Source: a virus
Lineage: Duplodnaviria; Caudoviricetes
IMG/VR virus record: IMGVR_UViG_3300030372_004181
Coordinates: 1 to 61,606 of that record
Length of the DNA: 61,606 nt
Direction: 5' to 3' (one strand)
In this document: one piece after another, positions 400 to 54,785 of the stretch
Position numbering within the stretch: position 1 is the stretch's first letter
Layout: each line of letters opens with the position of its first letter
Program-made: the position numbers and the translations under genes
The notes under the pieces: generated by a model
Told to the model about the DNA's origin: nothing
What the model saw: the letters and a program-made list of their open reading frames with translations, nothing else
Database searches by the model: none

Positions 400-446
400 A
401 CACAACATATAGTGTTGCGAGCACGCTCGCATACTATATCTAGGGG
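400..446. promoter_or_regulatory. Tandem NrdR-box-like pair
   Basis: ACACAACATATAGTGT (400-415) and ATACTATATCTAGGGG (431-446), starts 31 nt apart; NrdR consensus acaCwAtATaTwGtgt. Confidence 0.65.
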
Positions 447-499
447 GCTCGCTTCGCTCGCCCCTTGCGCGTAGTCGCGCGGCGGCTGCGCCGCCGCGC
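417..499. repeat. GC-rich hairpins / CTCGCT-N-CGCTCG element upstream of terL
   Basis: GCGAG-CACG-CTCGC (417-430), CTCGCTTCGCTCG (448-460), 10-bp all-GC stem (477-499) in an AT-rich genome. Confidence 0.7.
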
Positions 500-621
500 T
501 CCTAGACAGGGTACCTGTAACTATTTGCAAAATACATTGTGTTGTTGTAGAGTGTTGACACCCCCTTTTTTAGCGAGGTACTTTATATGTGTGTATATAT
601 ATAATAATCTAGTCATAGAAT

Positions 622-2100
622 ATGAAGATAAAAGATTTCAAAGACCAAATAGGCGAATTAAATATAGAAGAGCAGAAAGAACTAAGTTTACTTTTAGAGC
701 GTCAAGAAAAAGCAAAGAGGACCCAAAAAGCTCAAGAAAAATTCTTGGACTTCGTAAAATTTATGTGGCCACATTTTATTGAAGGGACCCATCATAGAAT
801 CATAGCCGAAAAATTTGATAGAATAGCAAATGGCACTTTGAAACGTTTGATTGTCAACATGCCACCCAGACATACAAAATCAGAATTTGCATCATTCATG
901 TTACCCGCGTTTATCATGGGCCGTAATCCGATGACCAAGATCATTCAAACATCACACACCGCAGAGTTATCGCAGAGGTTTGGTCGTAAAACAAAACAGA
1001 TGATTGACGGAACAGATTTCAAACAACTCTTTCCACAAACAATGCTACAATCAGATTCTAAAGCTGCCGGTCGTTGGGACACAAGTGCAGGTGGTGAATA
1101 CTTCGCTGCCGGTGTCGGTGGTGCGATTACCGGTCGTGGTGCAGATTTGTTAATTATCGATGATCCACATTCAGAGCAAGACGCCCTAAGTGAAACGGCC
1201 ATGGAAGGTGCGTACGAATGGTATACATCTGGTCCTCGTCAACGTTTACAGCCCGGAGGTGCAATCGTTCTTGTTATGACACGTTGGTCAACGATCGATC
1301 TGACAGGACAGTTACTACAAGCACAAGTTGAACCCAAAGCTGATCAGTGGGAAGTTGTAGAGTTCCCGGCAATCATGGACAGCGGTAAACCGACATGGCC
1401 TGAGTATTGGAAGATCGAAGAACTTGAATCAGTAAAGGCATCACTTGCTATTTCAAAATGGAACGCACAATGGATGCAGAAGCCAACATCAGAAGAAGGT
1501 GCAATATTAAAACGTGAATGGTGGCAGCCATGGAAACACAAAGACAAACCAAACTTACACTACATCATACAAAGTTATGACACGGCGTTTAGTAAAAAAG
1601 AAACTGCCGACTATTCTGCAATTACTACCTGGGGTGTGTTCTCACCTGACGACGCAAGACCGGCTTTAATTTTACTTGATGCGCAGCGTGGTCGATGGGA
1701 CTTCCCTGAACTCAAAGAAATAGCGTCAGAAGAATATAATTACTGGGAACCTGAGATGGTTCTCATTGAAGCCAAAGCGAGCGGTATGCCGTTGTCCGAT
1801 GAACTTCGTCGAATAGGAATACCCGTAACCAATTATACACCATCCAGGGGTAACGATAAACGGACAAGGGTCAATTCAATTGCACCGATGTTTGAATCAG
1901 GCATGGTCTATTATCCAGAAAACAGAACTTTTGCAGAAGAAGTTATTGAAGAATGCGCCGCTTTCCCGTATGGTGAGAATGATGACTATGTCGATACGGT
2001 CACCCAAGCGTTGATGCGTTTTAGACAGTCAGGATTAATTCAACTACGGATGGACTACGAGCCAGAACCCGTAGATAATACAAGGAGAGTATTTTACTAA
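622..2100 (+). CDS. terL: Terminase large subunit
   Basis: Walker A NMPPRHTKS, GGAITGRGADLLIIDDP, C-terminal RNase H-like nuclease (SYDTA, DDYVD). Confidence 0.95.
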   Translation: MKIKDFKDQIGELNIEEQKELSLLLERQEKAKRTQKAQEKFLDFVKFMWPHFIEGTHHRIIAEKFDRIANGTLKRLIVNMPPRHTKSEFASFMLPAFIMGRNPMTKIIQTSHTAELSQRFGRKTKQMIDGTDFKQLFPQTMLQSDSKAAGRWDTSAGGEYFAAGVGGAITGRGADLLIIDDPHSEQDALSETAMEGAYEWYTSGPRQRLQPGGAIVLVMTRWSTIDLTGQLLQAQVEPKADQWEVVEFPAIMDSGKPTWPEYWKIEELESVKASLAISKWNAQWMQKPTSEEGAILKREWWQPWKHKDKPNLHYIIQSYDTAFSKKETADYSAITTWGVFSPDDARPALILLDAQRGRWDFPELKEIASEEYNYWEPEMVLIEAKASGMPLSDELRRIGIPVTNYTPSRGNDKRTRVNSIAPMFESGMVYYPENRTFAEEVIEECAAFPYGENDDYVDTVTQALMRFRQSGLIQLRMDYEPEPVDNTRRVFY

Positions 2101-2324
2101 TGAGTGGTGATAGACCTTTAAAGTTTGAAGACTTCACAAACGTGGGAACAAGTTGGAGTCAAACCAATACGATTGGATATCAATTGCCGGGTAATGATAA
2201 TATATTTGTTCTTAGTGATGTCATACAAATGATTAGGGACTCCGGTGGACTTTTTGGTGGTAAAGCAGATGGGGGTTTGATTGGATATTTTGATGGTGGA
2301 ATTGTTTCGTTGTTAAGGAGGTAG
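2100..2324 (+). CDS. Small hypothetical protein with KADGG / FDGG motifs
   Basis: Start overlaps terL stop; carries the recurrent GG motif. Confidence 0.7.
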   Translation: MSGDRPLKFEDFTNVGTSWSQTNTIGYQLPGNDNIFVLSDVIQMIRDSGGLFGGKADGGLIGYFDGGIVSLLRR

Positions 2325-2325
2325 T

Positions 2326-2964
2326 ATGTCATTTTTAGTAGCAAACGTTCCACCAATAAAAGTTCATGTCAAAAAACAATATCTCTATGATTTACAAAAA
2401 GGTCATGGCGAGTTTACTGAAGGTGTGTGGGTCACATGCAAATCAATACAAGGTAGAGCGTTGTACTTTGAAACCTACTTGCCAGAGTACGGTGCACTTT
2501 ATGATAAACTTCCGATTTCCGCTTTTGTAGCTGAACCTACAGAATTAGATTTACCACTTGAAGAATTAGAATTGTGGGATGCATTTGATTATGGTTTGAC
2601 TGTGATCGAGAAAGCAGCAATATCTGGTTGCAAAACAAAATACTTATCGCCTTCTAAGAAGTGGCATACAGGGGAATATCTGTTTACCATTGACAACTGT
2701 CATCAGGACAAAAATATATTAAACACTGGCTATGCTGAAATACCAGAGGAACATAAGTCGTTTAACATTTTGTTATTGGACAACGAACACTTTGCAGCAC
2801 AGCCTAACAATCGTTGCTTGTTCTATGATAAATCGCTAAGTCCTTCAGAACTAAAGACTCCTGACTTTAAGGTATCCACTATTGAATACAATGTAGAGAC
2901 CGAAAGCAAGTGGACAGCGGGCGATGACGATAATTATTTTTACGGCTTGAAAGAACAGAAATAA
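2326..2964 (+). CDS. Conserved-type phage hypothetical protein
   Basis: Long ORF with AAGGAGG RBS; globular composition. Confidence 0.85.
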   Translation: MSFLVANVPPIKVHVKKQYLYDLQKGHGEFTEGVWVTCKSIQGRALYFETYLPEYGALYDKLPISAFVAEPTELDLPLEELELWDAFDYGLTVIEKAAISGCKTKYLSPSKKWHTGEYLFTIDNCHQDKNILNTGYAEIPEEHKSFNILLLDNEHFAAQPNNRCLFYDKSLSPSELKTPDFKVSTIEYNVETESKWTAGDDDNYFYGLKEQK

Positions 2965-2980
2965 TCGATTATTATATTCG

Positions 2981-3262
2981 ATGATTAACCGTTCACAATT
3001 AGGGAGTACAACAAATATGAGTTCATTTTATGAAAGCAATTTATATCCAAACAAAAAAAAATTAGAGGAAAAAAAGAAAAATAGAAAACCTGGTAGACAA
3101 GCAGATGCAAAAAAGACAGGAGGACGTGTTGGGTATAAAAAAGGTAAATTAGTTGGTGGTCAAAATAAATTAGATGCCAACAAAGACGGTAAAATATCTA
3201 AAGCAGATTTCGCTCTTTTGAAAAAAAAGAAGAAGAAAAAGAAAACTAAGAAGAGCAAGTAA
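2981..3262 (+). CDS. Lys-rich small protein with EF-hand-like loop
   Basis: DANKDGKISKADF loop, poly-K tail, KTGGRVGY motif; N-terminus INRSQL matches the capsid protein; alternative start at 3017. Confidence 0.8.
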   Translation: MINRSQLGSTTNMSSFYESNLYPNKKKLEEKKKNRKPGRQADAKKTGGRVGYKKGKLVGGQNKLDANKDGKISKADFALLKKKKKKKKTKKSK

Positions 3263-3504
3263 TGGGAAAACTTTGTCCAAAAGGTAAAGCAGCAGCAAAG
3301 CGTAAGTTTAAGGTCTATCCTTCAGCGTACGCTAATATGTATGCGTCCGGTGTGTGTTCAGGAAAAATTACTCCAGGCGGTAAGAAAAATAAAAAAGCTG
3401 ACGGGGGAAGAGTTGGTTTAAAGAATGGTGGATCACCAGGTAAGATTGCTAAAGGTTGTGGTGCAATCATGAGCAATCGACGTAAAGTAACCAAGTATGT
3501 CTGA
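3262..3504 (+). CDS. Basic small protein (YPSAYAN motif)
   Basis: Translationally coupled; K-rich; KADGGRVG motif. Confidence 0.8.
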   Translation: MGKLCPKGKAAAKRKFKVYPSAYANMYASGVCSGKITPGGKKNKKADGGRVGLKNGGSPGKIAKGCGAIMSNRRKVTKYV

Positions 3505-3809
3505 TGGCGAAAAAAGGTTTAAGAGCATGGGTCAAAGAGAAATGGGTGGACATTGGAGCACCCAAGAAGGATGGCAAATACCAGCCATGCGGGAGAAGCA
3601 AGGGATCAAAGAGGAAATATCCAAAATGCGTCCCACTTGCAAAAGCCACACGGATGACAAAGTCGCAAAAGGCGAGTGCTGTCAGACGAAAACGAGCTGC
3701 AGGTAATCCAGGAGGCAAACCAACGAATGTAGCTACGTTTGCAAAACGTAAAAAAGCTGCAAACGGAGGATCAATGAGTAATTACAGAAAACATTTACGA
3801 AAACCGTGA
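3504..3809 (+). CDS. Basic small protein (KEKWVD...CGR...YPKC)
   Basis: Coupled to upstream stop; K/R-rich; AANGG motif. Confidence 0.8.
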   Translation: MAKKGLRAWVKEKWVDIGAPKKDGKYQPCGRSKGSKRKYPKCVPLAKATRMTKSQKASAVRRKRAAGNPGGKPTNVATFAKRKKAANGGSMSNYRKHLRKP

Positions 3810-3889
3810 AACCAACAAAGATAGGAAACGAATGGATAACATCCACTTATAAAAACTTTCCTATAAGTAGATTGCAAACAGGAGAATAC

Positions 3890-4024
3890 ATGAAAAATAA
3901 AGTTAAAAAAATAAAAAAAGTTGTAAAAGGTTTAGAAAAAGCATCTAAAACTCATGCTGTTCAAGCCAAAACTTTAAAAAAAGTGATTAGTAATGGCAAA
4001 AGATCCAGTAAAAGGAACGGGTAA
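3890..4024 (+). CDS. Basic small protein
   Basis: Start moved to ATG 3890, downstream of AGGAG; K-rich amphipathic helix. Confidence 0.6.
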   Translation: MKNKVKKIKKVVKGLEKASKTHAVQAKTLKKVISNGKRSSKRNG

Positions 4025-4283
4025 AAAGCCAAAAGGGTCAGGGAGGAGACTTTATACCGATGAAAATCCGAAGGACACTGTACGTATTGCGTTCGCGACT
4101 CCGCAAGATGCCCGGAAGACTGTGGCGAAGGTCAAAAAGGTATCTAAACCGTTTGCGCGCAAAATTCAAATCTTAACAGTTGGCGAACAACGTGCTAAAG
4201 TAATGGGCAAATCAGAAGTTGTGCGTATATTTAAACAAGGAAAAGAAGCTATAAGGAAGAAACATGGCAAGAAAACCAGATAA
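3993..4283 (+). CDS. Basic small protein (RRLYTDENPKDT motif)
   Basis: K/R-rich ORF in the same cluster. Confidence 0.8.
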   Translation: MAKDPVKGTGKKPKGSGRRLYTDENPKDTVRIAFATPQDARKTVAKVKKVSKPFARKIQILTVGEQRAKVMGKSEVVRIFKQGKEAIRKKHGKKTR

Positions 4284-4548
4284 ACAACCACCAAAGACTA
4301 AAAAATATTTTAGATCGACTAAATCGGGTGCAGGTATGACTAAAGCTGGTGTTGCACGTTATAGAAGAGATAATCCTGGTTCAAAACTTAAAACAGCGGT
4401 TACAGGTAAGGTAAAAAAAGGTAGTAAAGCTGCAAAAAGACGCAAATCTTTCTGTGCACGTAGTGCAGGACAGATGAAAAAGTTTCCAAAAGCAGCAGCA
4501 GACCCTAATTCTAGACTACGTCAGGCTCGTAAACGTTGGAAGTGCTAA
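4264..4548 (+). CDS. Basic small protein (RRKSFCAR...RWKC)
   Basis: Motif of a type recurrent in marine phage proteins; AAGGA RBS. Confidence 0.8.
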   Translation: MARKPDKQPPKTKKYFRSTKSGAGMTKAGVARYRRDNPGSKLKTAVTGKVKKGSKAAKRRKSFCARSAGQMKKFPKAAADPNSRLRQARKRWKC

Positions 4549-4551
4549 CGT

Positions 4552-4677
4552 ATGATGTGTCGTAATTGCGAACACGAGTGTCATTGCAGTGATAACGGTC
4601 AGTGTGCTGTATGTGAGTGCTCAAACTGTGAGCATAATGCCTTAGATGAATTTTGGGATAGGCTAAATGAAAAGTAA
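4552..4677 (+). CDS. Cys/His-rich 41-aa metallothionein-like peptide (not in ORF track)
   Basis: Manual translation MMCRNCEHECHCSDNGQCAVCECSNCEHNALDEFWDRLNEK; fills the gap 3 nt after the upstream stop. Confidence 0.7.
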   Translation: MMCRNCEHECHCSDNGQCAVCECSNCEHNALDEFWDRLNEK

Positions 4678-4678
4678 G

Positions 4679-4707: not shown

Positions 4708-4732
4708 GAGTTAGCATTATAAGGGTAGTATT

Positions 4733-5092: not shown

Positions 5093-5093
5093 T

Positions 5094-15148: not shown

Positions 15149-15384
15149 AAATGACTTGGGTCATAACTGCTATGCTACTTTATCATGGCGTAGAAAAACC
15201 TATTATTACTGACTATTTGGTAAAATCGTTTGACACAAAATTTGATTGTTTAGACTATGTTTGGGACAACAAAGTAGATATGATTGATGGTTTATTAGAA
15301 GTACACAGAGAAGTAGATGGTGTTAAACTAAGAACGTTTGCTTTTTATTGTGAAAACAGATTCGTAGAATTGGAAGAAGTATGA
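15145..15384 (+). CDS. Hypothetical protein with hydrophobic N-terminus
   Basis: ATGA overlap with upstream gene; two Cys. Confidence 0.7.
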   Translation: MKMTWVITAMLLYHGVEKPIITDYLVKSFDTKFDCLDYVWDNKVDMIDGLLEVHREVDGVKLRTFAFYCENRFVELEEV

Positions 15385-15455
15385 TAGATTTTTCTGGTTT
15401 TGGTATTTATTTTTTTTATGTAGCAATTATTTTATTTGTTTATGAAGCTCTCTGA
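15381..15455 (+). CDS. Possible 24-aa hydrophobic peptide (not in ORF track)
   Basis: MIDFSGFGIYFFYVAIILFVYEAL; ATGA-coupled, bridges two genes. Confidence 0.35.
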   Translation: MIDFSGFGIYFFYVAIILFVYEAL

Positions 15456-15816
15456 AGACACGACCGTCTCCTTACCATTTAAAAATCTTTTGGCCATTCT
15501 GGCCGCCGTGGCACTTGGCACGACCAGCTATTTTACGGTGGTTGAACGTTTAAACAGTATTGAAACTACATTACAGCTAATGGAAAAAGATTTAGAAGCT
15601 GCTAATATCTTTATAGATTCGGTGCCCAAGGGCGGCATGGTCAGTCCCCAAGTCCAAGAATTATACATGTTGGTTGAGTACCTTGGCGAGAACGTAGACA
15701 AACTAAAAGAACAGATGGAAGCAGAGATACCTATGATATTAAAAAATGATATGGTTATACAGTTTCACGAGGAAAGATTAATAGACTTGGAGTCAAAAAC
15801 AAATGGAAACCATTAA
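15442..15816 (+). CDS. Membrane-anchored coiled-coil protein
   Basis: N-terminal hydrophobic helix then heptad repeats; possible lysis accessory. Confidence 0.65.
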   Translation: MKLSEDTTVSLPFKNLLAILAAVALGTTSYFTVVERLNSIETTLQLMEKDLEAANIFIDSVPKGGMVSPQVQELYMLVEYLGENVDKLKEQMEAEIPMILKNDMVIQFHEERLIDLESKTNGNH

Positions 15817-16024
15817 AGTTGTATTTGCAATACTTATGATACAGAACGGTTCAACAATTGAGATGGTGCCGACTGAGGGACTTAGCGATTGTCTTAAGCA
15901 GAAACGTTTAATTAGCAGACAGATAGGTGAGGAGCAAGATGGAATATACATGCAATGTAAGGAGGTTACGGCTTCTCTCTACGAAGACATGGGCCGACTT
16001 AAGATCAAAAAGATCATAGAATAA
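15803..16024 (+). CDS. Small hypothetical protein
   Basis: GGAG RBS; hydrophobic N-terminus, two Cys. Confidence 0.7.
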   Translation: METIKVVFAILMIQNGSTIEMVPTEGLSDCLKQKRLISRQIGEEQDGIYMQCKEVTASLYEDMGRLKIKKIIE

Positions 16025-41006: not shown

Positions 41007-41234
41007 ATGAGCGACGAAACAAAAGCAGCTTTAGAAACACACTTAGCAGAATGTCAACTGCGTTATCAAGTATTTGAAGAGAAGCTTGATAATATGCAGG
41101 CACAGCAAGAACGTATAAATAAACATACATTTGAACTAAGACAGATGATGACTTGGTTTATGGGAGCAGCAGCATCATTTGCAGCCATATCAATGTTACT
41201 TGGAATAATATTTATCATATCTGAAATAATTTAA
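41007..41234 (+). CDS. Small coiled-coil plus C-terminal TM protein
   Basis: H..EC..RY motif, hydrophobic C-terminus; GAAAGG RBS. Confidence 0.7.
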   Translation: MSDETKAALETHLAECQLRYQVFEEKLDNMQAQQERINKHTFELRQMMTWFMGAAASFAAISMLLGIIFIISEII

Positions 41235-42697
41235 ATCCAATCCTTAAGATCTTCACCTAATATTTCGTTTGCAATATTAACTTTGTTGCGTAATGCTTTT
41301 ACAATTTTTTCATCGACAGTCTTTTCACATATCAGATCAACGTATGTAACTTTGTTTGTTTGACCAATTCTGTGTGCTCGATCCTCTGATTGTAATCTTT
41401 TTTCCAAGTCATAACTGTTTGAGTAGTATACTACAGTGTTAGCCGCTGTAAGTGTGATTCCATACCCTCCAGTTTGTGGATTTCCAACAAAATAGCGTGT
41501 AGGGCCGTTTTTCTCTTGAAATAGCGTGATTTGCTTCTGGCGGACCCTAGGGTCCACTGCACCGTAATATGCCACTGTAGAGGCTTCTCCGTAAGCTTTT
41601 TTTAACTCAACAACTATATTTTCTATGTCAGAAACGTAAGTTGCCCATATTATAACCTTGCCTTCGGTTTCTTCCAACAACGACATCAATTCTGTTAATC
41701 GATTATTTTTTAAATGTGTAACTGACCCATCATCCGTTTTCAAATGACCACAAGTGATTTGATGAAGACGTAAAAGTTGTGTCAGTACATTTACAGTTGA
41801 ACAAAGTTTGCCATCAAGTTCTGCCAGCGCCATCTGTCTCATAGTTGTGTACGCACGTTGTTGCTCTGGTGTCATTTCAATTATTCTTTTTTCAAATACT
41901 TTGTCCGGTAAATCAAGACAGTCTTCTTTTAATATTCGATAGGAAAATTTACTAACAATATCTGACAGTTCTCCAAGGTTACGATAACTATTATTGGGTC
42001 TAACAATATTCACCGAACGACCGCCAACGTTAATTGTCTGCATGTTGGCATAGCGTGCTCTAAATGTATAGTAAGAACTATGCCCTAACAATTCTTCATT
42101 TAAAAACTCACATTGTGAGTATAAATCTAAAGGACTTTTGGTGACAGGACTGCCTGTCATGATGCGTTTGTAATACGCATAACGGCTAACGGACACTATA
42201 TTTTTGGTGCGTTTGGCCGATGGTGTCTTTATTGTAGTGCTTTCATCAATTGCCATCATTGACTTGTAACACATTAAAAAACTTTGAGCTGCTTCCATTC
42301 CAGGTTTAGATGAGAAGGCTTCTATGTTCATAACAAACAAAGTCAAAGAGGGGTCTCTTGTTTGTACATACAGTTGATCTAATAGTTCTTGATCTTGTTT
42401 AGATCTAGAGCTTGGAGCAGACCACTGAAACGTCCTACAATCAATGTGTTCTGGTAAGTGTGTAGGTATTTCTTGCTCTATCCAGTTTTTATAAACACCT
42501 TTTGGTGCAACAATAATAGCTGCTTCAATCTTACCTTCGTCATACAACATAGCAATATTATCTAATAATATTTTTGATTTGCCTGTTCCCATTTCACAAA
42601 ACAATGCAAAATTTTTCTTTTTATAACTAACTTTTAACGCATCAATTTGATGTTGATATGGTTTTGTTTTAAAGCGGTAGTCCATGGTTTCTGCCAT
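41231..42697 (-). CDS. SNF2-family helicase
   Basis: EMGTGKS (Walker A), IDEST, MTGSP, GITLT, QSEDRAHRIGQ; start placed at ATG 42697. Confidence 0.92.
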   Translation of the reverse strand: MAETMDYRFKTKPYQHQIDALKVSYKKKNFALFCEMGTGKSKILLDNIAMLYDEGKIEAAIIVAPKGVYKNWIEQEIPTHLPEHIDCRTFQWSAPSSRSKQDQELLDQLYVQTRDPSLTLFVMNIEAFSSKPGMEAAQSFLMCYKSMMAIDESTTIKTPSAKRTKNIVSVSRYAYYKRIMTGSPVTKSPLDLYSQCEFLNEELLGHSSYYTFRARYANMQTINVGGRSVNIVRPNNSYRNLGELSDIVSKFSYRILKEDCLDLPDKVFEKRIIEMTPEQQRAYTTMRQMALAELDGKLCSTVNVLTQLLRLHQITCGHLKTDDGSVTHLKNNRLTELMSLLEETEGKVIIWATYVSDIENIVVELKKAYGEASTVAYYGAVDPRVRQKQITLFQEKNGPTRYFVGNPQTGGYGITLTAANTVVYYSNSYDLEKRLQSEDRAHRIGQTNKVTYVDLICEKTVDEKIVKALRNKVNIANEILGEDLKDWI

Positions 42698-42737
42698 TTC
42701 TGCTCTTAATTCTTTCTTTATAAAATATAATAGTTTT

Positions 42738-42785
42738 CTTTCTTGATTTATTATATAATACATGCTATATAATTTGTCAAGAAAG
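42738..42785. promoter_or_regulatory. Overlapping divergent promoters
   Basis: + strand TTGATT-17-TATATA; - strand TTGACA (42780-75)-17-TATATA; flanked by inverted repeat CTTTCTTGA/TCAAGAAAG. Confidence 0.55.
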
Positions 42786-42790
42786 TTAGT

Positions 42791-43141
42791 ATGACTGTAT
42801 ACTGTATACAAGAACCGAGAGGAACTGCCGATGGCGTTCCTAAATACGACGTGTTAGAAGCGTCACCATACGGTGAAGTAAAATTTTTATTTTCTGAATT
42901 TGCTCAGTTAATGAAAAGTTCGGGTGCGGCCATAAACTCGTTAAGAAAGAAACTAAAAGGTTTTAACGATGGTGACTACTTGATAGCTGCTGGAGATCCA
43001 GGATTAATTGCTATATCCTGTCTAGTAGCAAGTGATCTTAATTTTGGTAGAGTAAAACTATTAAAATGGGATCGCAGAGATAGAAAGTATTATTCATTAT
43101 CGATAGACCTTTATAACAAGGAGAAAGAAAGTGATGAATGA
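42791..43141 (+). CDS. Hypothetical replication-module protein
   Basis: A..YGE, DYL...GDP and LKWDR motifs; first gene of the replication operon. Confidence 0.8.
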   Translation: MTVYCIQEPRGTADGVPKYDVLEASPYGEVKFLFSEFAQLMKSSGAAINSLRKKLKGFNDGDYLIAAGDPGLIAISCLVASDLNFGRVKLLKWDRRDRKYYSLSIDLYNKEKESDE

Positions 43142-47797: not shown

Positions 47798-49643
47798 GTT
47801 TGTATACAACGCACCAACTGAATGGACACCGAAAGATTATTATCCTGACTTGTCTAATGAAAAATTAATTGCGATTGACTTAGAAACGTGCGATAGAAAT
47901 TTAACAACTCACGGTTCTGGTTGGGCAACGGGCGATGGTTATGTAACCGGTATCGCTGTGGCGACTGCTGATTGGCAAGGTTATTATCCAATAGCTCATG
48001 GAGGCGGAAACCTCAATAAAAAGAAGGTGTTAGACTGGTTTAAGGGCGTAGCAAAACTTGATTGTGATAAAATTTTTCATAATGCGTCGTACGATTTAGG
48101 ATGGTTAAGAAGTCTAGGGATAACGGTCAACGGTAAAATACATGACACGATGATATCAAGTGCATTGATAGATGAAAACAGATATTCATTTACGTTAAAT
48201 AGTTTGGCAAAAGAAAAATTAGGTGAAACAAAGAACGAAGATTTATTAATCAAAGCTGCAAAAGAATTTGGTGTTGATCCAAAAAAAGAAATGTACAAGT
48301 TGCCATCAATGCATGTAGGCGAGTACGCGGAATACGATGCACGGCTAACGTACGATTTATATATATTTAATAAAAAAGAAATAGAAGCACAAGAACTGCA
48401 TGATATTTATGATTTAGAAACAAGATTACAGCCTTGTTTGATTGACATGAGAGCAAATGGTGTACGCGTAGATTTGGAGCAAGCAGAAGTTGCTAAAAAG
48501 TTATTGTCAAAAAAAGAAAAAGAATTGATGCAACAAATAAAAAAAATGTGTGGCATGGACATAGAAATATGGGCCGCAGCTTCTATTGCAAAAGCTTTTG
48601 ATTATTTAAAAATACCTTACCCAAGAACACCTAAGAGTGGTGCACCAAGTTTTACAAAGAATTTTTTATCTAGTAATGAACATGAGATAGCTCAAAAGAT
48701 TGTGGAAGCAAGAGAAATGAATAAAGCTAACACAACATTTATAGAAACTATTTTAAGACACCAACACAAAGGACGCATACACTCTGAGATACATCAGATG
48801 AGAAGTGACGATGGTGGTACAGTAACAGGTAGATTTAGTTATAGTAATCCTAACTTACAACAAATTCCCGCACGTAACGAAGATATTAAAAAGTTAATTC
48901 GTAGTTTGTTTATACCTGAAGAAGGTAAACAATGGGGCATGTTTGATTATTCACAACAAGAACCAAGATTAGTTGTTCATTATGCTTTTTGTGACAACTT
49001 GGATGTGCACTCAATTATAAGTGGTTACCGTGAAGGCGATGCTGACTTTCATCAAATGGTTGCAGATATTGCACAGATTCCTCGCGGACAGGCCAAGACA
49101 ATAAACCTGGGGCTATTCTATGGTATGGGCAAAAACAAATTGATGAATGAACTGGGTATTGAGAGTGTAGAGGCCGAAGAAATAATAAATACATATCAAA
49201 GTAAAGTTCCTTTTGTAAAACAATTAACATACAATGTTATGGACAAAGCGTCAGCCAGGGGAGAGATTAAAACTTTACTTGGTAGACATTGTCGTTTCCC
49301 TTTCTACGAACCAAGAGAGTTTGGCAAGAAAGGTTTTTACAAAACAAAAGAAGAAGCAATTGATGCACTAGGTCATGGTAATTACAAGCGCGCAGGTACG
49401 TACAAGGCAATGAACAAGTTAATTCAAGGGTCTGCAGCCGATCAAACAAAGAAAGCAATGGTGGACTTATACGAACAGGATGGTATCATACCTCATATAC
49501 AAGTGCATGACGAACTAAACATATCTGTTGAAAACAAAAGCGAGGCACTTAATATAAAAAATAAAATGGAAACGTGTGTTGATCTACATGTACCAAGCAA
49601 AGTCGACTATGCTATTGTAAAGAACTGGGGAGAGGCAAAATGA
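47790..49643 (+). CDS. polA: DNA polymerase family A with 3'-5' exonuclease
   Basis: DLET, HNASYD, YAEYD exonuclease motifs; TGRFS..NPNLQQIP, DYSQQEPR, AKTINLGLFYG, QVHDEL. Confidence 0.95.
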   Translation: MNKFVYNAPTEWTPKDYYPDLSNEKLIAIDLETCDRNLTTHGSGWATGDGYVTGIAVATADWQGYYPIAHGGGNLNKKKVLDWFKGVAKLDCDKIFHNASYDLGWLRSLGITVNGKIHDTMISSALIDENRYSFTLNSLAKEKLGETKNEDLLIKAAKEFGVDPKKEMYKLPSMHVGEYAEYDARLTYDLYIFNKKEIEAQELHDIYDLETRLQPCLIDMRANGVRVDLEQAEVAKKLLSKKEKELMQQIKKMCGMDIEIWAAASIAKAFDYLKIPYPRTPKSGAPSFTKNFLSSNEHEIAQKIVEAREMNKANTTFIETILRHQHKGRIHSEIHQMRSDDGGTVTGRFSYSNPNLQQIPARNEDIKKLIRSLFIPEEGKQWGMFDYSQQEPRLVVHYAFCDNLDVHSIISGYREGDADFHQMVADIAQIPRGQAKTINLGLFYGMGKNKLMNELGIESVEAEEIINTYQSKVPFVKQLTYNVMDKASARGEIKTLLGRHCRFPFYEPREFGKKGFYKTKEEAIDALGHGNYKRAGTYKAMNKLIQGSAADQTKKAMVDLYEQDGIIPHIQVHDELNISVENKSEALNIKNKMETCVDLHVPSKVDYAIVKNWGEAK

Positions 49644-49891
49644 CTGATAAAAATGTTATTAATGTATGCCTGTGTCCAGGGTGTGGCAATCTAACAACTA
49701 TGAAGAAAGTAGTAGATGACACTTTCTTTTGTAAACTTTGCCATCAAAAATTTAAACAGTATAAGAATGGTAAACTAATTTATGTTCCTTTACCGGTTGC
49801 TAAAGCAATGGAAGATAGTGAAATAATATTTGAATCTGATGCTGATTTGGATTTAGATATACAGTTTGATTTTGATCCAGAAGATTCTTAA
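49640..49891 (+). CDS. Zinc-ribbon protein with acidic tail
   Basis: CPGC...CKLC; ATGA overlap with polA. Confidence 0.75.
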   Translation: MTDKNVINVCLCPGCGNLTTMKKVVDDTFFCKLCHQKFKQYKNGKLIYVPLPVAKAMEDSEIIFESDADLDLDIQFDFDPEDS

Positions 49892-50196
49892 TTCTTAAAC
49901 TCGATAGCGTTAAACACCTCACCAACAATGGTCGACGGTCTACCGTCACTGTGGTATGTAGCGCAAGACTGTAGTTCTTCGAAAGGCACACCGTGTTGTA
50001 ATGCAACAGAAACCAATCTTCCAAACTCAGTTAATATATCAAACTTCTCTGTTCCAACTTTACCACCTCCACTTATCCATATCTCTTTAACTTTCTCGTC
50101 TTGAAACGAAACAGCGAGCCTGTAAGGCGTTCCTCCACTGTCAGTTATTTGGAAAGCGTACGCCGGACGACGGTTATCTAATTCTGTTCTACTCAT
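49888..50196 (-). CDS. Stand-alone NrdJ C-terminal (TSCPD-like) domain protein
   Basis: R..L.NRR...EI.I...K.G...SVALQHGVP.EEL...DGRPS pattern recalls class II RNR C-terminal region; no catalytic RNR domain. Confidence 0.65.
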   Translation of the reverse strand: MSRTELDNRRPAYAFQITDSGGTPYRLAVSFQDEKVKEIWISGGGKVGTEKFDILTEFGRLVSVALQHGVPFEELQSCATYHSDGRPSTIVGEVFNAIEFKN

Positions 50197-50365
50197 GTTC
50201 ACCGTTCTCTTTCTCCCATTCGTTGTAGTTTTCCCATTTATTTTTTAAATTAATCACTGATTTTTTTTGAAAGGGTTTTAATTTATCAAAAATATATGGG
50301 CGCATAACTTTTTTATAATGATGTTTTGCGCAAAAAATATCATATTTAGTAATTATATGAGGCAT
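50189..50365 (-). CDS. 58-aa hypothetical protein (not in ORF track)
   Basis: MPHIITKY...EKENGEHE; AGAAAG RBS; stop overlaps start of the TSCPD-like gene. Confidence 0.6.
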   Translation of the reverse strand: MPHIITKYDIFCAKHHYKKVMRPYIFDKLKPFQKKSVINLKNKWENYNEWEKENGEHE

Positions 50366-50402
50366 GGTAAGTCTTTCTTTCTGTTTATTTTTTTTTACAT
50401 AA

Positions 50403-50449
50403 TAACAATATTTTGTTGACAGTCAATAGTATATTACTATATCTTGTGG
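50403..50449. promoter_or_regulatory. Tandem NrdR-box-like pair over divergent promoters
   Basis: TAACAATATTTTGTTG (50403-18) and TTACTATATCTTGTGG (50434-49), 31 nt apart; central TTGACAGTCAA supplies back-to-back -35 hexamers. Confidence 0.65.
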
Positions 50450-50479
50450 TAGATTATAATAAAATATGGAGGAATCTAT

Positions 50480-50644
50480 ATGGATGATAATTGGGTGCCC
50501 CACATAATGGGCAACGATTTTGAGACAACTCGTTTACATGAAGAAAACAAGCTGTTGAAACTACAGGTTGAAGAGCTTCAAAAAACGATAAATAGTCTTA
50601 AGGTATCTTTTGTCCAAGAGACCGGTCGAGAAATCGCAGTATAA
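50480..50644 (+). CDS. 54-aa coiled-coil protein (not in ORF track)
   Basis: GGAGG RBS; MDDNWVPH...GREIAV. Confidence 0.65.
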   Translation: MDDNWVPHIMGNDFETTRLHEENKLLKLQVEELQKTINSLKVSFVQETGREIAV

Positions 50645-50664
50645 AACAAAAAAGAAAGAAGGTA

Positions 50665-50850
50665 ATGATGCCAGACATCACTAAATACTCATCTGTTTCT
50701 ATTTCGAAAACAGCATACAAAGAACTTAATTTAATAAAAGAAAAACTGTCAGATGATTTAGGTGTATCCTTTTCATTGGCAAAACTCATTGAACATTTAG
50801 CAAAAGAAAAAGTAAAAAAGTTAAAGCTCAATGGTCATGCAGGAAAGTAA
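50665..50850 (+). CDS. Small putative DNA-binding protein (ribbon-helix-helix-like)
   Basis: YSSVSIS strand followed by two amphipathic helices. Confidence 0.6.
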   Translation: MMPDITKYSSVSISKTAYKELNLIKEKLSDDLGVSFSLAKLIEHLAKEKVKKLKLNGHAGK

Positions 50851-51544
50851 CGAACCAAAATCGTTAATTACAGAAAGATATTCTTACGGGGATGTTAAAC
50901 GTAAAACAATTAATGGCCGACGTCATTATGAAGGCGAGGGAAAGTTTCTCCCGTCCGTTACAACAATCATCTCCACCACCAAGAGCCAAAAAGATAAAGA
51001 AGGTTTACTTAGGTGGAAAGAGCGAGTTGGCGAAACGGAGGCTGAGGCGATTAAAAGCCAGGCGGCGTCTGTAGGTACAGCTATGCATAAATTCCTCGAG
51101 TGTCATATAAAAGGGCTTGGCTACGATGACCAAACAAACATTGGTATCATAGCCAAGCGAATGGCACAACTAATCGTTAGGAATGCCTTGCCATCAATGG
51201 ATGAATATTGGGGCACCGAAATCCCCCTTTTCTACCCCACATTCTATGGTGGCACGGCCGATTGTACAGGAGTTTGGCGTGAACAGCCAGCAGTTATTGA
51301 TTTTAAACAAACCAACAAACCTAAAAAAGATGAATGGATTGAAGATTATTTTATACAACTTGCGGCTTACATCATGGCTCATGACGCATTATATAAAACA
51401 AAGATGGAAGCGGGTGTTATACTTATGGCGTCACGAGGTATGACATTGCAAATGTTTACATTGAACGGTGATAAACTTGATGACTACAAATACAAATGGT
51501 TAAAACGTTGCGAACAATATTATTTAGGAGAAATGAATGGTTAA
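50831..51544 (+). CDS. PD-(D/E)XK exonuclease
   Basis: PSVTTI, W.ERVG, GT.MH, E..L, GTAD, IDFKQ, YF.QLAAY. Confidence 0.88.
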   Translation: MVMQESNEPKSLITERYSYGDVKRKTINGRRHYEGEGKFLPSVTTIISTTKSQKDKEGLLRWKERVGETEAEAIKSQAASVGTAMHKFLECHIKGLGYDDQTNIGIIAKRMAQLIVRNALPSMDEYWGTEIPLFYPTFYGGTADCTGVWREQPAVIDFKQTNKPKKDEWIEDYFIQLAAYIMAHDALYKTKMEAGVILMASRGMTLQMFTLNGDKLDDYKYKWLKRCEQYYLGEMNG

Positions 51545-51752
51545 ATGGACAACTAAAGAATTAGTAGCGAGGTTAGAAAAATTTTGTGCAAGCCCAGAGG
51601 GCGCGAACGCTCGCGTGTCTCTTGCTGTGCCGATGGGGTTTGGTTCTAATCCGAACACGTCGTTTGATATAAAAAAGATTGATCTTGTGCCTAATACTAT
51701 TATAGGTGCTAAAGAAAAATATCGTTTGATAATTGTAATCCAGGAGCTGTAA
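51537..51752 (+). CDS. Hypothetical protein
   Basis: AGGAG RBS, overlaps upstream stop. Confidence 0.7.
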   Translation: MVKWTTKELVARLEKFCASPEGANARVSLAVPMGFGSNPNTSFDIKKIDLVPNTIIGAKEKYRLIIVIQEL

Positions 51753-51753
51753 T

Positions 51754-51960
51754 ATGATACCGTTATATACTAGAATGAGAAAGATCGAATTGTTTTTAGA
51801 TCGTGATTATTTACCCGAGGATATTAAACGAATATTTAAAGGACATTGGAACAGGCTCAACGAACAACGGACAATGAAAGCTAAAGAAAGAAACTTGGAG
51901 AGTGAAGCATTCTTTGCACGTCTAGGCGGTGTGATGGGACAAGACAATGAGGAAAGCTAA
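51754..51960 (+). CDS. Hypothetical protein
   Basis: AGGAG RBS. Confidence 0.65.
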   Translation: MIPLYTRMRKIELFLDRDYLPEDIKRIFKGHWNRLNEQRTMKAKERNLESEAFFARLGGVMGQDNEES

Positions 51961-52090
51961 AGCACATTACGAACACACACGTGGACCAAAGAAACGCACG
52001 AGCATTGGCAACAGCATACGTTCACGTCCTAAAAATAAACACAAGCGACGTAATTTTAAAAAGTACCGAGGCCAAGGCAAAAAACGCTAG
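51947..52090 (+). CDS. 47-aa basic peptide ending KKYRGQGKKR (not in ORF track)
   Basis: Manual translation; overlaps both neighbours. Confidence 0.75.
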   Translation: MRKAKAHYEHTRGPKKRTSIGNSIRSRPKNKHKRRNFKKYRGQGKKR

Positions 52091-52527
52091 TGGGCTATAA
52101 AGACAAAGCAAAAGAAAAATTAAATCGTGTGCAATACATGAACACCGAACACGGGTGGCTTACAGTTAAATACAATGATTTAAAAAAAACTTGGAAACGT
52201 AAACCCCACCGAAAAGAATTTAAGGATGTTTTAACGAAAGAAGAGTTTTTTCAATCTTGGAAGGAACACAAAGAAAAACACGATTGGAATTGTTATTATA
52301 CGGGCGAACCTATGACAATAGGCAGACCTTTATCAGAGAACGGAGTACATAATAGAAACTCAGCAGACCCAAACAAAATGTCAGTAGATAGGTTTGATTC
52401 AACGAAAGGCTACACCAAAGACAATATAGTTTTTTGTTGTTGGTCTTTTAATAATCGCAAGGGCCCAATTACATTAGATGACTGTAAAATTATTTTACAA
52501 AAAGCACTTGACAGAGAGACCACATAG
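52090..52527 (+). CDS. HNH-like (beta-beta-alpha-Me) endonuclease
   Basis: CYYTG..M...SVDR.DS.KGYT.DN...CC...N..K. Confidence 0.8.
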   Translation: MGYKDKAKEKLNRVQYMNTEHGWLTVKYNDLKKTWKRKPHRKEFKDVLTKEEFFQSWKEHKEKHDWNCYYTGEPMTIGRPLSENGVHNRNSADPNKMSVDRFDSTKGYTKDNIVFCCWSFNNRKGPITLDDCKIILQKALDRETT

Positions 52528-52626
52528 CATTATATAGGATAGTAATTGTTCCCGTTTTGGCTTTAGTAATGCGGCAATGCTTGGCATGAAAACCCAGAAC
52601 GGGACAGCGCGAAGAAAGACAGAAAG

Positions 52627-52770
52627 ATGATTATAGATACACGAAAATGTATAAGGTGTGATAGCGAGTTCACTATAACCCGTTGGCAGAAATCGAAAAA
52701 ATATTGTTCCGATAAGTGCTCAAATGGTTATTATAAGAGCACCAACGCAAAACTGAGGAAGAAAAAATGA
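52627..52770 (+). CDS. 47-aa zinc-finger peptide (not in ORF track)
   Basis: CIRC...F...KKYCSDKC; AGAAAG upstream. Confidence 0.7.
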   Translation: MIIDTRKCIRCDSEFTITRWQKSKKYCSDKCSNGYYKSTNAKLRKKK

Positions 52771-52922
52771 AAACATTATTTCTATTCGGTATTTTTGTAT
52801 TGTTGACATCTATGTCGATCAATCAATACCGGTATCTTGACGTTAACTGGTGCTCATCTGAGATACAGATACTGCGCGATCAAGTAAGTGATATATGGTT
52901 TTACTATGGCCTTGATGATTAG
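52767..52922 (+). CDS. 51-aa protein with signal/TM helix (not in ORF track)
   Basis: MKTLFLFGIFVLLTSMS...; overlaps both neighbours. Confidence 0.6.
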   Translation: MKTLFLFGIFVLLTSMSINQYRYLDVNWCSSEIQILRDQVSDIWFYYGLDD

Positions 52923-53277
52923 ATTATTAATCTTACTTTTATTGACAACTACAGCGACAGCCGACATTTATTGTTACGATGGTGACACCTGCTATGTCAA
53001 CAGAGAGCCTATAAGACTACTCGGTGTCGATACACCAGAGATTCGGGGTGCTAAGTGCAGCCTGGAGCGTATCAAAGCACTGGAAGCCAGAGATTTTTTA
53101 AACGATACCATTGATGATGCAAAAGAAGTGGCAGTCCATGTGTCAAAAGTTCGTGGGCATTACGGTCGTATGCTTGGATATGTGTACGTTGATGGCGAAA
53201 ATATGTCCGATGTGCTTATTAGAAAGGGCTACGGTGTGAAATATGATATGTATAACAAGGAGGATTGGTGCAAATGA
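52915..53277 (+). CDS. Thermonuclease (SNase family) with signal peptide
   Basis: YDGDT...IRLLGVDTPE...YGRMLGYV.VDG...LI.KG; N-terminal MIRLLILLLLTTTATA. Confidence 0.88.
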   Translation: MIRLLILLLLTTTATADIYCYDGDTCYVNREPIRLLGVDTPEIRGAKCSLERIKALEARDFLNDTIDDAKEVAVHVSKVRGHYGRMLGYVYVDGENMSDVLIRKGYGVKYDMYNKEDWCK

Positions 53278-53477
53278 CTTATAAACCATTAACAGCAGGC
53301 GATATACGGTGGATTGAGGCTACTACAGAGCGTGATATGGGCGCTAAAGAGTCGGTAAAGAGCACCGTTCGAAAATTAGAGGCTGAAAACGAGCGAAAAA
53401 TGGAGCGTATATCGGTATCCGGTGACTTTTATCGAAGGTTAAGGGGCAAGGTTCAAGGGACAATGGACAACGGTTAA
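53265..53477 (+). CDS. Hypothetical protein
   Basis: AAGGAGG RBS. Confidence 0.65.
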   Translation: MVQMTYKPLTAGDIRWIEATTERDMGAKESVKSTVRKLEAENERKMERISVSGDFYRRLRGKVQGTMDNG

Positions 53478-53540
53478 CGGACAACGTATAAGGGATATCT
53501 TGAGTAGTTATAAAAAATATTTTTTTACTGAGTAGACCCT

Positions 53541-53641
53541 TCTACACCTACTACACTTACTACAAAAGTATAAAATATAATAATATCAATAATATAGATA
53601 GTGTAAAATGTAGTAACTTTGTAGTAATTGTAGTAACTACA
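53541..53641. repeat. Inverted iteron array around an AT-rich core (origin-like)
   Basis: (TTA)CTACA x3 facing TGTAGTAA x3 in a ~240-nt non-coding gap. Confidence 0.6.
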
Positions 53642-53721
53642 TAATGACATTTTACGTATAACAATTAAAAAACCAAAAAATATTCTAGAAAGTAGTCGAA
53701 ATATACACTATAGTATTCGAT

Positions 53722-54117
53722 ATGAAAGTTACGAAAACGAAACCAAAGAAAGTTGATACACCTAAAGGGTTCCCGGAATCAGTCAAGGTAGGTTATAGAG
53801 ATCTCAAAATCGAATGGATTGCACCAGATTTTAAAACAGATAATCTTACAGATTGTTACGGACACTATAAAGCTAGAGAAGGGCTTATTCAGATACAGCA
53901 TGACTTGTGTGGCCAAGAACGAAGCAATACTTTGTTGCATGAAGTGTTGCATGCATGCGTTTATGGATCCGGACTTAATCAAGCTGAAGGACCTTTGAAG
54001 GAAGATAATGCTGAAGAGTTAACTGTAAATCAACTTACTAATTATTTGATGGGTGTATTTAGAGATAATCCATGGTTTTTGGACTACATTAAAAAGGGTG
54101 TGAATGATTCAGAATAG
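53722..54117 (+). CDS. Zincin-like metallopeptidase domain protein
   Basis: TLLHEVLHA (HExxH) with downstream EE. Confidence 0.75.
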   Translation: MKVTKTKPKKVDTPKGFPESVKVGYRDLKIEWIAPDFKTDNLTDCYGHYKAREGLIQIQHDLCGQERSNTLLHEVLHACVYGSGLNQAEGPLKEDNAEELTVNQLTNYLMGVFRDNPWFLDYIKKGVNDSE

Positions 54118-54585
54118 TTAGTCTTTAACTTCTTCTGAATCAACTTCTATTACGTTCATCTTACTCATCAAATCAGATATTCTTTCTTGTACTTCTGCGT
54201 CTGTAAGTTGATCTATCTTACCATGTTTGACATGCATTTCATTGATGTATAATCCTGCCGCCTTACCACGCGCAACTTCTGCCTGGACTGCTGCTGAATA
54301 GGATTCTTTTTCGACAGCCGCGTCTCTTATTTTTTGTAGTTCTTTAAAGTGTCTATCTATTGTTACGTTATATTTCTTTTGCACTTCTTCGCGCACACGT
54401 TTGATTTCTTCACAAACCAAAGGATAATATTTTACATTTTGTAGTTTTGAGGCATGATGTCTTGCAGATGACTCTGGGTAACCGGCACGTATGGCAGCTT
54501 CAGTTGCCGTTATCCGCCCTTCATTACTAATTAATTCGTGAACAAAAATAATTTGTTTTTCGGTTAGTTTCTTTGGTACTCCCAC
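54118..54585 (-). CDS. terS: Terminase small subunit
   Basis: LTEKQ..F...ATEAAIRAGY..SA...AS.L HTH pattern; AVQAEVARGKAAGLY; GTG start with GAAAGG RBS. Confidence 0.85.
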   Translation of the reverse strand: MGVPKKLTEKQIIFVHELISNEGRITATEAAIRAGYPESSARHHASKLQNVKYYPLVCEEIKRVREEVQKKYNVTIDRHFKELQKIRDAAVEKESYSAAVQAEVARGKAAGLYINEMHVKHGKIDQLTDAEVQERISDLMSKMNVIEVDSEEVKD

Positions 54586-54663
54586 GCTTGAGCCTTTCGC
54601 TTGATGCTTTTTTCACGCTTGCGCCTTCAGTTTTCTATTTTTTTCGCGCTTGCGCCTTCGGTT
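54585..54663. repeat. CGCTTG(A/C)GCCTT repeats upstream of terS
   Basis: Copies at 54585, 54616 and 54647 (31-nt period) plus a partial copy at 54598, separated by T tracts. Confidence 0.7.
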
Positions 54664-54680
54664 TTTTGTTTTTTTCCAAA

Positions 54681-54698
54681 TGTTGCAAAAATATCACA
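54681..54698. promoter_or_regulatory. 18-bp operator-like box (TGTTGCA-N4-TATCACA)
   Basis: Related to copies at 332, 60000 and 60678. Confidence 0.5.
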
Positions 54699-54736
54699 AA
54701 AATAAAAATTTTTCAAGTTTGGTTGTTTTTTGTTTG

Positions 54737-54785
54737 ACACAATATGTAGTGGTTTGATGGCTTTCATAAACACAAGATATAGTAT
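54737..54785. promoter_or_regulatory. Tandem NrdR-box-like pair
   Basis: ACACAATATGTAGTGG (54737-52) and ACACAAGATATAGTAT (54770-85), 33 nt apart. Confidence 0.65.

Follow-up and report, generated by a model that had tools for sequence, protein, structure and literature searches.

To our knowledge, NrdR is a nearly universal bacterial repressor of ribonucleotide reductase (RNR) genes. Phages meet their demand for deoxynucleoside triphosphates (dNTPs) by carrying RNR genes, and phage genes under LexA control illustrate how phage promoters can be wired to a host global repressor. Here we analyze the 61,606-bp viral genome IMGVR_UViG_3300030372_004181 (IMG/VR; CheckV completeness, 100%), the full length of which is referred to below as the window. 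It contains three tandem pairs of NrdR-type boxes, located upstream of the large terminase gene (terL), at the control region of the small terminase gene (terS), and ahead of a gene for a TSCPD-domain protein. What is new here is a phage without RNR or NrdR that appears to carry conserved copies of a host operator at its packaging and TSCPD genes. We found no report in the literature that places NrdR boxes at terminase genes or in phages that lack RNR, and the text of PMC9599517 contains no mention of ribonucleotide, NrdR, TSCPD, promoter, or "terminase small."

NrdR sites are described as pairs of 16-bp palindromes (PMC12051234; Rodionov and Gelfand 2005, as cited there). According to the available text of the same article, the NrdR tetramer loaded with ATP and dATP binds the two boxes and represses, and NrdR with ATP only does not bind DNA. 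Binding is reported there to be strongest at spacers of 15 to 17 bp, with a second optimum at 24 to 27 bp, and repression to be lost at spacers of 18 to 24 bp; high-affinity binding needs both boxes, and the DNA is kinked sharply at each of them (Rozman Grinberg 2022, cited in PMC12051234). Box pairs derived from the consensus were bound, according to PMC12051234, by four NrdR proteins representing three phyla. As for phage-borne genes, the portion of PMC12753301 at hand reports nrdAB in pelagiphage HTVC022P, and open reading frames (ORFs) annotated as NrdR are mentioned for cyanophage S-SRP02 and other viruses in the accessible text of PMC8790148 and PMC5894146.

The pairs in the window share with bacterial NrdR operators the same 16-bp palindrome, the same conserved core positions, and the tandem arrangement with 15- to 17-bp spacers, but they flank terS, terL, and the TSCPD gene instead of nrd genes. 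Pair 1 of phage relatives has the layout of the nrdA operator in SAR11 bacteria, a weak half-box with a strong box 31 nt away, whereas the density differs: three pairs in 61.6 kb, compared with a box (≤1 mismatch) at nrdA only in 1.1 to 1.3 Mb. With phage-borne nrdAB and NrdR genes the present phage has in common the theme of phage dNTP need and the NrdR/RNR circuit, but it would rely on the host repressor and the host RNR, since it carries the non-coding operator only. The logic would be that of phages wired to LexA, in which a host sensor's operator, copied into the phage, makes phage genes respond to a host signal; the sensor here would be NrdR (dATP/ATP) and not LexA (DNA damage).

An earlier note on this sequence, made from the letters alone, had described six 16-bp sites in three intergenic pairs with starts 31, 31, and 33 nt apart, and we recovered all of them. 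Mismatches were counted against the consensus quoted in that note, ACACWATATATWGTGT, and not against a published matrix.

400..415, strong box of pair 1, ACACAACATATAGTGT, 1 mismatch
431..446, weaker partner in pair 1, ATACTATATCTAGGGG, 4 mismatches, 15-bp spacer
50403..50418, weak box of pair 2, ATAACAATATTTTGTT (minus strand, CAACAAAATATTGTTA), 5 mismatches
50434..50449, second box of pair 2, TTACTATATCTTGTGG (minus strand, CCACAAGATATAGTAA), 4 mismatches, 15-bp spacer
54737..54752, first box of pair 3, ACACAATATGTAGTGG, 2 mismatches
54770..54785, second box of pair 3, ACACAAGATATAGTAT, 2 mismatches, 17-bp spacer

The boxes are thus 16-bp palindromes with spacers of 15, 15, and 17 bp, within the 15- to 17-bp range of NrdR operators, and every pair is intergenic (331-621, 50366-50479, and 54586-54906). 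The box pairs are real and far from chance. The earlier note had proposed a scan against shuffled controls, which we carried out with the quoted consensus on 300 dinucleotide shuffles of the window. Sites with up to 2 mismatches numbered 3 in the window and averaged 0.20 in the shuffles, none of which reached 3. Two pairs at 31 to 33 nt had summed mismatches of 6 or fewer, and 0/300 shuffles contained any such pair. At summed mismatches of up to 9, the window gave 5 register hits at three loci (shuffle mean, 0.22; 5 reached in 0/300). A weaker control was provided by sites with up to 3 mismatches, with 6 observed against a mean of 2.33 (6 reached in 2 of 100 shuffles). By score alone pair 2 is weak, with summed mismatches of 9; it was accepted because it is conserved and because its better box shares, on the opposite strand, the 14-mer CACAAGATATAGTA with box 54770.

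The genome as a whole can be classed from its sequence as a complete relative of the HTVC023P-type SAR11 phages. Over a stretch of 566 nt, terL shares 72% nucleotide identity with Pelagibacter phage HTVC023P; matches to HTVC027P were seen in other stretches. A terL relative (67% TerL identity) is found on a 62-kb contig of an uncultured Pelagibacteraceae single-cell genome; 11 other terL matches fell into metagenome bins of scattered taxa and were taken as binning noise. The earlier note had called for confirmation of nrdR in the host, and in the Pelagibacteraceae, the inferred host family, NrdR (TIGR00244 above the curated cutoff) is present in 54 of 61 genomes, as is the RNR large subunit (54/61); the same profile found nothing in the phage.

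The operators of this family were inspected upstream of nrdA in 34 regions, which represent 32 genomes, two of them included twice. Each of the 34 contains the box [AC][CT]ACAACAT[ACG]TAGTTG at about 35 to 50 nt before the start codon. The best partner box within 18 to 45 nt upstream is exactly 31 nt away in 17 of the 34 regions and usually has a good right half, e.g., ATATAGTAT. In four of five whole genomes (1.1 to 1.3 Mb) the box at ≤1 mismatch is exclusive to nrdA, and in the fifth the nrdA box has 2 mismatches; five other sites with 2 mismatches were seen in one of the five genomes. The first 14 nt of phage box 400 are identical to the SAR11 nrdA main box, ACACAACATATAGTTG, and the two bases in which it differs from the host box shift it toward the general consensus.

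A GTTC-N7-GTTC direct repeat (e.g., ATGTTCTATTAATGTTCT) is conserved just upstream of the NrdR boxes in the SAR11 nrdA regions (L129-L163). We take this repeat to be the alphaproteobacterial LexA motif, and its position suggests dual control of SAR11 nrdA, by SOS and by NrdR. In the phage window, LexA-type boxes are at chance level (2 found, 1.7 expected).

The earlier note had suggested testing related genomes for conservation of the paired spacing, which we observed for pair 3 and, in close relatives, for pair 2, while pair 1 is patchy. We retrieved 20 terS relatives (65 to 97% identity), 19 of them with upstream sequence, and 16 of these 19 have two boxes with up to 3 mismatches each at 31 to 33 nt from one another, with spacers of 15 to 17 bp. 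The exceptions are L103, with a looser pair at 32 nt, and L098 and L099, with one good box each. Among the 14 distinct pair 3 operators, positions 3, 4, 6, 8, 9, 11, 13, and 14 are fixed in 13 or 14, and positions 1, 2, 7, 10, 12, 15, and 16 vary, as do the spacers. Two of the relatives, L107 and L108, have four boxes upstream of terS, that is, two adjacent tandem pairs.

For pair 2, the six closest of 10 TSCPD relatives (88 to 100% identity) keep the distal box with small changes, and all six keep the weak box at +31. The four relatives with 73% TSCPD identity carry a palindrome at the place of the distal box and no partner, namely, CTACTACATGTAGTAG in L088 and CTACTAGATGTAGTAG in L087, L089, and L090. 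In L088 the palindrome is perfect and both of its arms have changed together, which fits a dimeric binder.

The strong box of pair 1 was found, among the best 80 terL relatives, in the three closest (85 to 98% identity, L001-L003), where it forms a conserved island; the half-box lies 31 to 32 nt upstream of it in these relatives and not downstream as in the window. In a looser search with the box core, 72 loci had at least 150 nt of sequence upstream of terL and 4 of these contained pairs there; core pairs occurred at these 4 loci in 34.5 kb of upstream sequence versus 0 in 100.7 kb of terL coding sequence. Among the pattern-scan matches listed, L190, L187, L228, and L247 (terL identity, 63 to 70%) have pairs 110 to 270 nt upstream of terL. 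Sites with up to 3 mismatches number 6 in the window, compared with 0 in HTVC023P, 1 in HTVC027P, and 0, 1, and 2 in three complete uncultured relatives (G062-G064), and no box pairs are present in the first 50 kb of HTVC027P. Pair 1 thus recurs patchily upstream of terL, and the trait as a whole is patchy across the phage group.

The position of the pairs relative to genes and promoter-like sites was derived from the ORF map, Pfam and PHROG profile scans, and a promoter scan. The relevant features are as follows.

349..366, plus strand, GC hairpin resembling a terminator, at the end of the preceding block and 34 nt ahead of pair 1
622-2100, plus strand, large terminase gene terL, which opens the structural block (PF17289, E 1.4e-11)
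49888-50196, minus strand, TSCPD-domain protein, 102 amino acids (aa), second gene of its unit (PF12637, E 4e-7, 30.6 bits, cutoff 22.8)
50189-50365, minus strand, 58-aa ORF, first gene below pair 2, without Pfam or PHROG match, absent in relative L082
50365 to 49888, minus-strand unit consisting of the 58-aa ORF and then the TSCPD-domain ORF
50399..50426, minus strand, promoter-like site TTGACT-16-TATTAT with TG (10 of 12), toward the 58-aa ORF and the TSCPD gene
50416..50445, plus strand, promoter-like site TTGACA-18-TATCTT (10 of 12), toward a 54-aa ORF (50480) and the exonuclease and nuclease genes
50480-54117, plus strand, exonuclease and nuclease genes, the first ORF, at 50480, being of 54 aa
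54118-54585, minus strand, terS, small terminase, a lone minus-strand gene (PF03592, 34.9 bits, cutoff 26.1; phrog_51, E 9.5e-17)
54688..54716, minus strand, promoter-like site TTGAAA-17-TATTTT with TG (9 of 12), toward terS
54754..54783, plus strand, promoter-like site TTGATG-18-TATAGT (9 of 12), bracketed by the pair 3 boxes
54828..54856, plus strand, strongest promoter-like site, TTGACA-17-TATACT (11 of 12), of the low-GC small-ORF block, not overlapped by a box

The assignment of terS is based on the match to PF03592 (Terminase_2) above the cutoff and on the presence of a partner terL in the genome. The earlier note had placed two pairs upstream of terL and terS. Pair 1 is indeed upstream of terL, and pair 3 is at the terS control region; pair 2 is at neither packaging gene. 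Box 50403 covers the spacer and the -10 element of the minus-strand promoter-like site that runs from 50426 to 50399, and box 50434 covers the -10 element of the plus-strand site 50416-50445. Pair 2 thus sits on two overlapping, face-to-face promoter-like sites, which is how repressor sites are classically arranged. Pair 3 lies 43 nt upstream of the strongest plus-strand site and 21 nt upstream of the minus-strand site that faces terS, the ACTTG and TGTGATA elements of which (54688-54716) are conserved in relatives. Box 54770 contains the -10 element TATAGT of the plus-strand site 54754-54783, and by eye only we noted a minus-strand TTGACT-17-TATATC with its -10 element within the same box, which the scan rules did not accept. 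The conserved feature of pair 3 is its linkage to the terS side. Pair 1 is located about 175 to 220 nt upstream of terL, between the terminator and GC-rich hairpins. About 150 nt beyond it, at positions ~555-585, a conserved TTGACA...TACTTT block was seen by eye, which is the likeliest candidate for a late promoter ahead of terL.

Several side observations concern the same regions. GC-rich hairpins follow one another at 340-505, between the last of the small ORFs and terL, in a genome that is AT-rich elsewhere; the 15 bp that separate the pair 1 boxes form a hairpin too (TGCGAG-CACG-CTCGCA). In relatives, the strong box of pair 1 is fused to a GTGTTGCA-TAAA-TGCAACAC hairpin, and L002 has this box-plus-hairpin module twice. 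Abutting the terS start, a 31-nt unit (CACGCTTGNGCCTT... and then a T-run) stands in three direct tandem copies (54583-54675), and a motif GAAGGCGCAAGCG (terS strand) is present in 3 to 5 copies at the equivalent place in relatives. For the repeats at 54583-54675, a pac site, a TerS-binding site, and a structured leader are all conceivable.

The earlier note had also stated that no nrdR, nrdA/B, or full nrdJ is recognizable, which our profile searches bear out. Six-frame searches of the window gave no match to the RNR families PF02867, PF00268, and PF13597 or to the ATP-cone (PF03477) and NrdR (TIGR00244) profiles, the latter finding nothing at E values of up to 1. The neighbors of the boxes are terL, terS, the TSCPD-domain ORF, and nuclease genes, so that the usual RNR target of an NrdR operator is absent. 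The partial nrdJ hinted at in that note corresponds to the 102-aa TSCPD-domain ORF. Its family comprises 129 representatives at E ≤0.001, mostly of 100 to 115 aa, and 46 of 60 aligned members match PF12637. The phage ORF thus belongs, above the Pfam cutoff, to the same domain family as the C-terminal TSCPD region of class II RNR, but it has no catalytic RNR core, contains a single cysteine, and ends in ...SCATYHSDGRPSTIVGEVFNAIEFKN without the TSCPD motif; the consensus of its close family ends in G..LD.L. The hallmarks of PF12637, which we take from Pfam to be conserved cysteines and a C-terminal TSCPD motif, are accordingly lacking in the 102-aa ORF. Pair 2 thus precedes a gene whose only recognizable domain also ends class II RNR, but a role related to RNR is only a lead.

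Sequence and profile searches with the TSCPD family gave no useful match among solved structures. HTVC027P gp20 was considered as a homologue of the TSCPD protein, and no alignment was found. The own TSCPD protein of the host family has about 280 aa, is present in 56 of 61 genomes, and is unlinked to nrdA; at the three loci looked at, no sites with up to 4 mismatches are located beside its gene. In one case (L172:1189-2031) this host gene adjoins a class II tRNA-synthetase gene (Pfam tRNA-synt_2 and GAD).

Taken together, the motif, the 15- to 17-bp spacers, the near identity to the host nrdA operator, the presence of nrdR in the host family, and the conservation agree with one another, and for this reason we read the pairs as NrdR operators. 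Mimicry of the host NrdR operator is well supported by these comparisons, and binding of host NrdR to the phage pairs is, in our judgment, probable. Promoter overlap and the conserved position relative to terS favor a function in the regulation of phage genes. We also lean, with less assurance, toward a model in which NrdR represses the TSCPD gene, terS, and possibly late units and is relieved as replication lowers dATP and multiplies the operators. Early in infection, host NrdR would occupy the phage pairs. It would hold down the face-to-face promoters at 50.4 kb, which serve the TSCPD unit leftward and the recombination and nuclease genes rightward, with the terS control region (54.7 kb) and the site ahead of terL as further targets. 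Phage DNA synthesis would then draw dATP down while operator copies multiply, so that NrdR would be released and the units switched on. Packaging functions would thereby be tied to replication and dNTP status, and the same release would, as a side effect, relieve the host nrdA operator. If the pairs are bound, a few dozen non-coding bases would let the phage read the dATP/ATP state and time packaging to replication, and the operator pairs may also free host RNR. The idea is testable directly with known tools.

The available text of PMC12753301 describes phage HTVC027P as having no nrd genes and reports that, at 9 to 15 h of its infection, host nrdA rises 3.1- to 8.9-fold and nrdB 2.5- to 5.8-fold, with SOS genes up too. 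With this phage type, host nrd genes thus open at a middle to late stage of infection, in agreement with a timer. The nrd rise during HTVC027P infection may be driven by SOS via the GTTC-N7-GTTC repeat. Because HTVC027P is box-less, its transcriptome is no test of the operators described here. In HTVC027P (15254-15944; L164), the minus-strand terS (gp29) directly follows gp30, a protein that, in the portion of PMC12753301 available, is called ArfA-like and forms its own temporal cluster (early and late).

Several findings weigh against the model of NrdR-timed phage genes. The host, SAR11/Pelagibacteraceae, is a likely assignment that derives from a related phage contig, and the Pelagibacteraceae single-cell genome that contains this contig gave no NrdR match itself, although that genome may be incomplete. 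The wiring is not essential to this phage type because the cultured phages HTVC023P and HTVC027P have no boxes. Overlap with promoters is also uneven: pair 2 lies on -10 elements, pair 3 brackets a site of 9 of 12, and pair 1 overlaps no promoter called by the scan. The conserved terS-proximal promoter lies downstream of both pair 3 boxes, and box 50403, with its 5 mismatches, is weak. Finally, neither Pfam nor PHROG matched most of the small ORFs between 54.9 kb and the end of the window, which leaves room for a regulator encoded by the phage itself.

Such a regulator would bind the palindromes in place of NrdR, the likeness to NrdR boxes being convergent, or it would compete with NrdR for the same sites. 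Besides the small ORFs, an 83-aa ORF with a CxxC...CxxC zinc ribbon at 49640-49891 offers a candidate, and the confinement of the boxes to sub-lineages of the phage group is as expected of a lineage-specific regulator. However, no helix-turn-helix, ribbon-helix-helix, or NrdR-like protein was recognized in the window, and a private binder would leave unexplained the 14-base identity to the host nrdA operator, the spacers typical of NrdR, and the occurrence of the same motif class and spacer bias in many unrelated viral contigs. We consider this explanation unlikely, and we give only slightly more credit to titration as the main function, which was one of the two options in the earlier note. 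According to that option, the pairs soak up host NrdR and derepress host nrdAB, thus replacing a phage RNR gene, and effects on phage promoters are secondary. The absence of RNR from the phage agrees with this, as does pair 1 with its lack of a called promoter; the host motif at ≤1 mismatch occurs only at nrdA in the genomes checked, so that three pairs per phage copy would outnumber the host sites. Some titration is indeed unavoidable if NrdR binds and would be an automatic consequence. A decoy, however, needs neither the exact placement of pair 2 on promoter core elements nor the fixed place of pair 3 relative to terS across relatives, and three pairs are few for a dedicated sponge. Moreover, host nrdA and nrdB rose in the HTVC027P infection described in the accessible part of PMC12753301, with a phage that has neither boxes nor nrd genes; a decoy is therefore not needed for the rise of host nrd genes. 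Of the interpretation in the earlier note, the NrdR-type operator pairs are thus supported, and titration is weakened as a necessity.

It is considerably less probable that NrdR serves as a host bending factor for initiation of packaging or for replication near terS and not as a repressor. Two pairs flank packaging genes, pair 3 is 62 nt away from the three 31-nt repeats (54583-54675), which are conserved in relatives and have a pac-like location, and two sharp kinks have been reported for NrdR (Rozman Grinberg 2022, in the text of PMC12051234 at hand). Against this, pair 2 is away from packaging genes and on promoters, the pac status of the repeats is putative, and no precedent was found in the literature searched. 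We give the least credit of all, and very little, to the idea that no specific binder exists and that AT-rich promoter sequence, with back-to-back -10-like hexamers (TATAGT/ACTATA), merely resembles NrdR boxes. The boxes do contain such hexamers and lie in promoter-dense regions of an AT-rich genome (29 to 44% GC), but pairs of this kind appeared in 0/300 shuffles, the outer ACAC/GTGT arms and the 31- to 33-nt spacing are conserved while the spacers drift, and the core pairs that occur at 4 loci in 34.5 kb upstream of terL are absent from 100.7 kb of terL coding sequence.

We also scanned a viral collection for the cores ACTANATNTWGT and ACWANATNTWGT at 19 to 21 nt from one another, which corresponds to spacers of 15 to 17 bp. 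The scan covered one of two core variants and scored the first flanking ORF, in contigs whose hosts are not known. Pairs in phase (15- to 17-bp spacers) were found in at least 117 viral stretches, compared with 31 stretches for out-of-phase cores (20- to 22-bp spacers) in a complete scan. A set of 80 of the at least 117 loci was analyzed further and forms the basis of the following numbers. It contained 87 matches, 82 of which are outside long ORFs, and 84 distinct pairs, with spacers of 16 bp in 42, 15 bp in 33, and 17 bp in 9. Positions left free by the pattern follow the NrdR consensus, position 2 being C or T in 159 of 168 boxes and position 15 being G or A in 160 of 168. The neighbor tally considered, on each side of a pair, the first ORF of ≥70 aa with its start no more than 350 nt away; this gave 89 ORFs with the following Pfam families.

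Terminase_2 (small terminase), 4 flanking ORFs
Terminase_6C (large terminase), 3
Portal, 2
DUF5681, 2
ATP-cone, 1
NRDD, 1, the sole RNR
12 further families, one flanking ORF each

The tally counts ORFs per family, and the number of unmatched ORFs does not follow from it. The three large terminases and two small ones were placed by tblastn in the phage group of the window, and the small terminase of L198, 33 nt from its pair, is that of an unrelated phage. A tblastn search of the 80 loci (707 kb) with SAR11 NrdA gave no match for class I RNR, classes II and III being judged by the Pfam tally only. Near-identical tandem pairs (ATACTATATATAGTGT...ACACTATATATAGTAA) are present beside small unannotated ORFs in several contigs of about 95 to 155 kb, in one collection entry, which look like another phage group using the motif. 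The excess of in-phase pairs (at least 117 versus 31), the flanks that follow the consensus, and the greater number of terminase than RNR neighbors point to a widespread strategy, and the scan suggests that the same trick is used well beyond this lineage. We advance only tentatively, as a possibility that falls well short of an even chance, that copying of the host NrdR operator is a widespread phage strategy in which release would act as a replication-coupled timer for packaging or late genes and would also open host RNR. If so, NrdR release would let RNR-less phages manage without an enzyme of their own.

The remainder of the genome is organized as follows.

From terL to about 41.2 kb, structural block
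41231-42811, minus strand, helicase
Up to 49643, primase, helicase, and DNA polymerase A
54907 to the window end and on through 1-330, block of low GC content with small unannotated ORFs

The small-ORF block has a GC content of 29 to 31% (54001-60000), compared with 32 to 44% in the remaining genome, and no tRNA genes were found in the 61.6-kb window. The zinc-ribbon ORF at 49640-49891 was tried as an NrdR-like binder and rejected, with an alignment to SAR11 NrdR over 5 residues only (E 0.39). This 83-aa ORF combines its CxxC...CxxC zinc ribbon with a strongly acidic tail (…DADLDLDIQFDFDPEDS) and converges on the TSCPD gene. The intergenic region 53478-53721 harbors an iteron-like cluster of the 7-mer TGTAGTA (53549-53636), with two inverted and three direct copies 9 to 11 nt apart. 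The 7-mer resembles half an NrdR box, and the cluster possibly serves as an origin or as a further control region.

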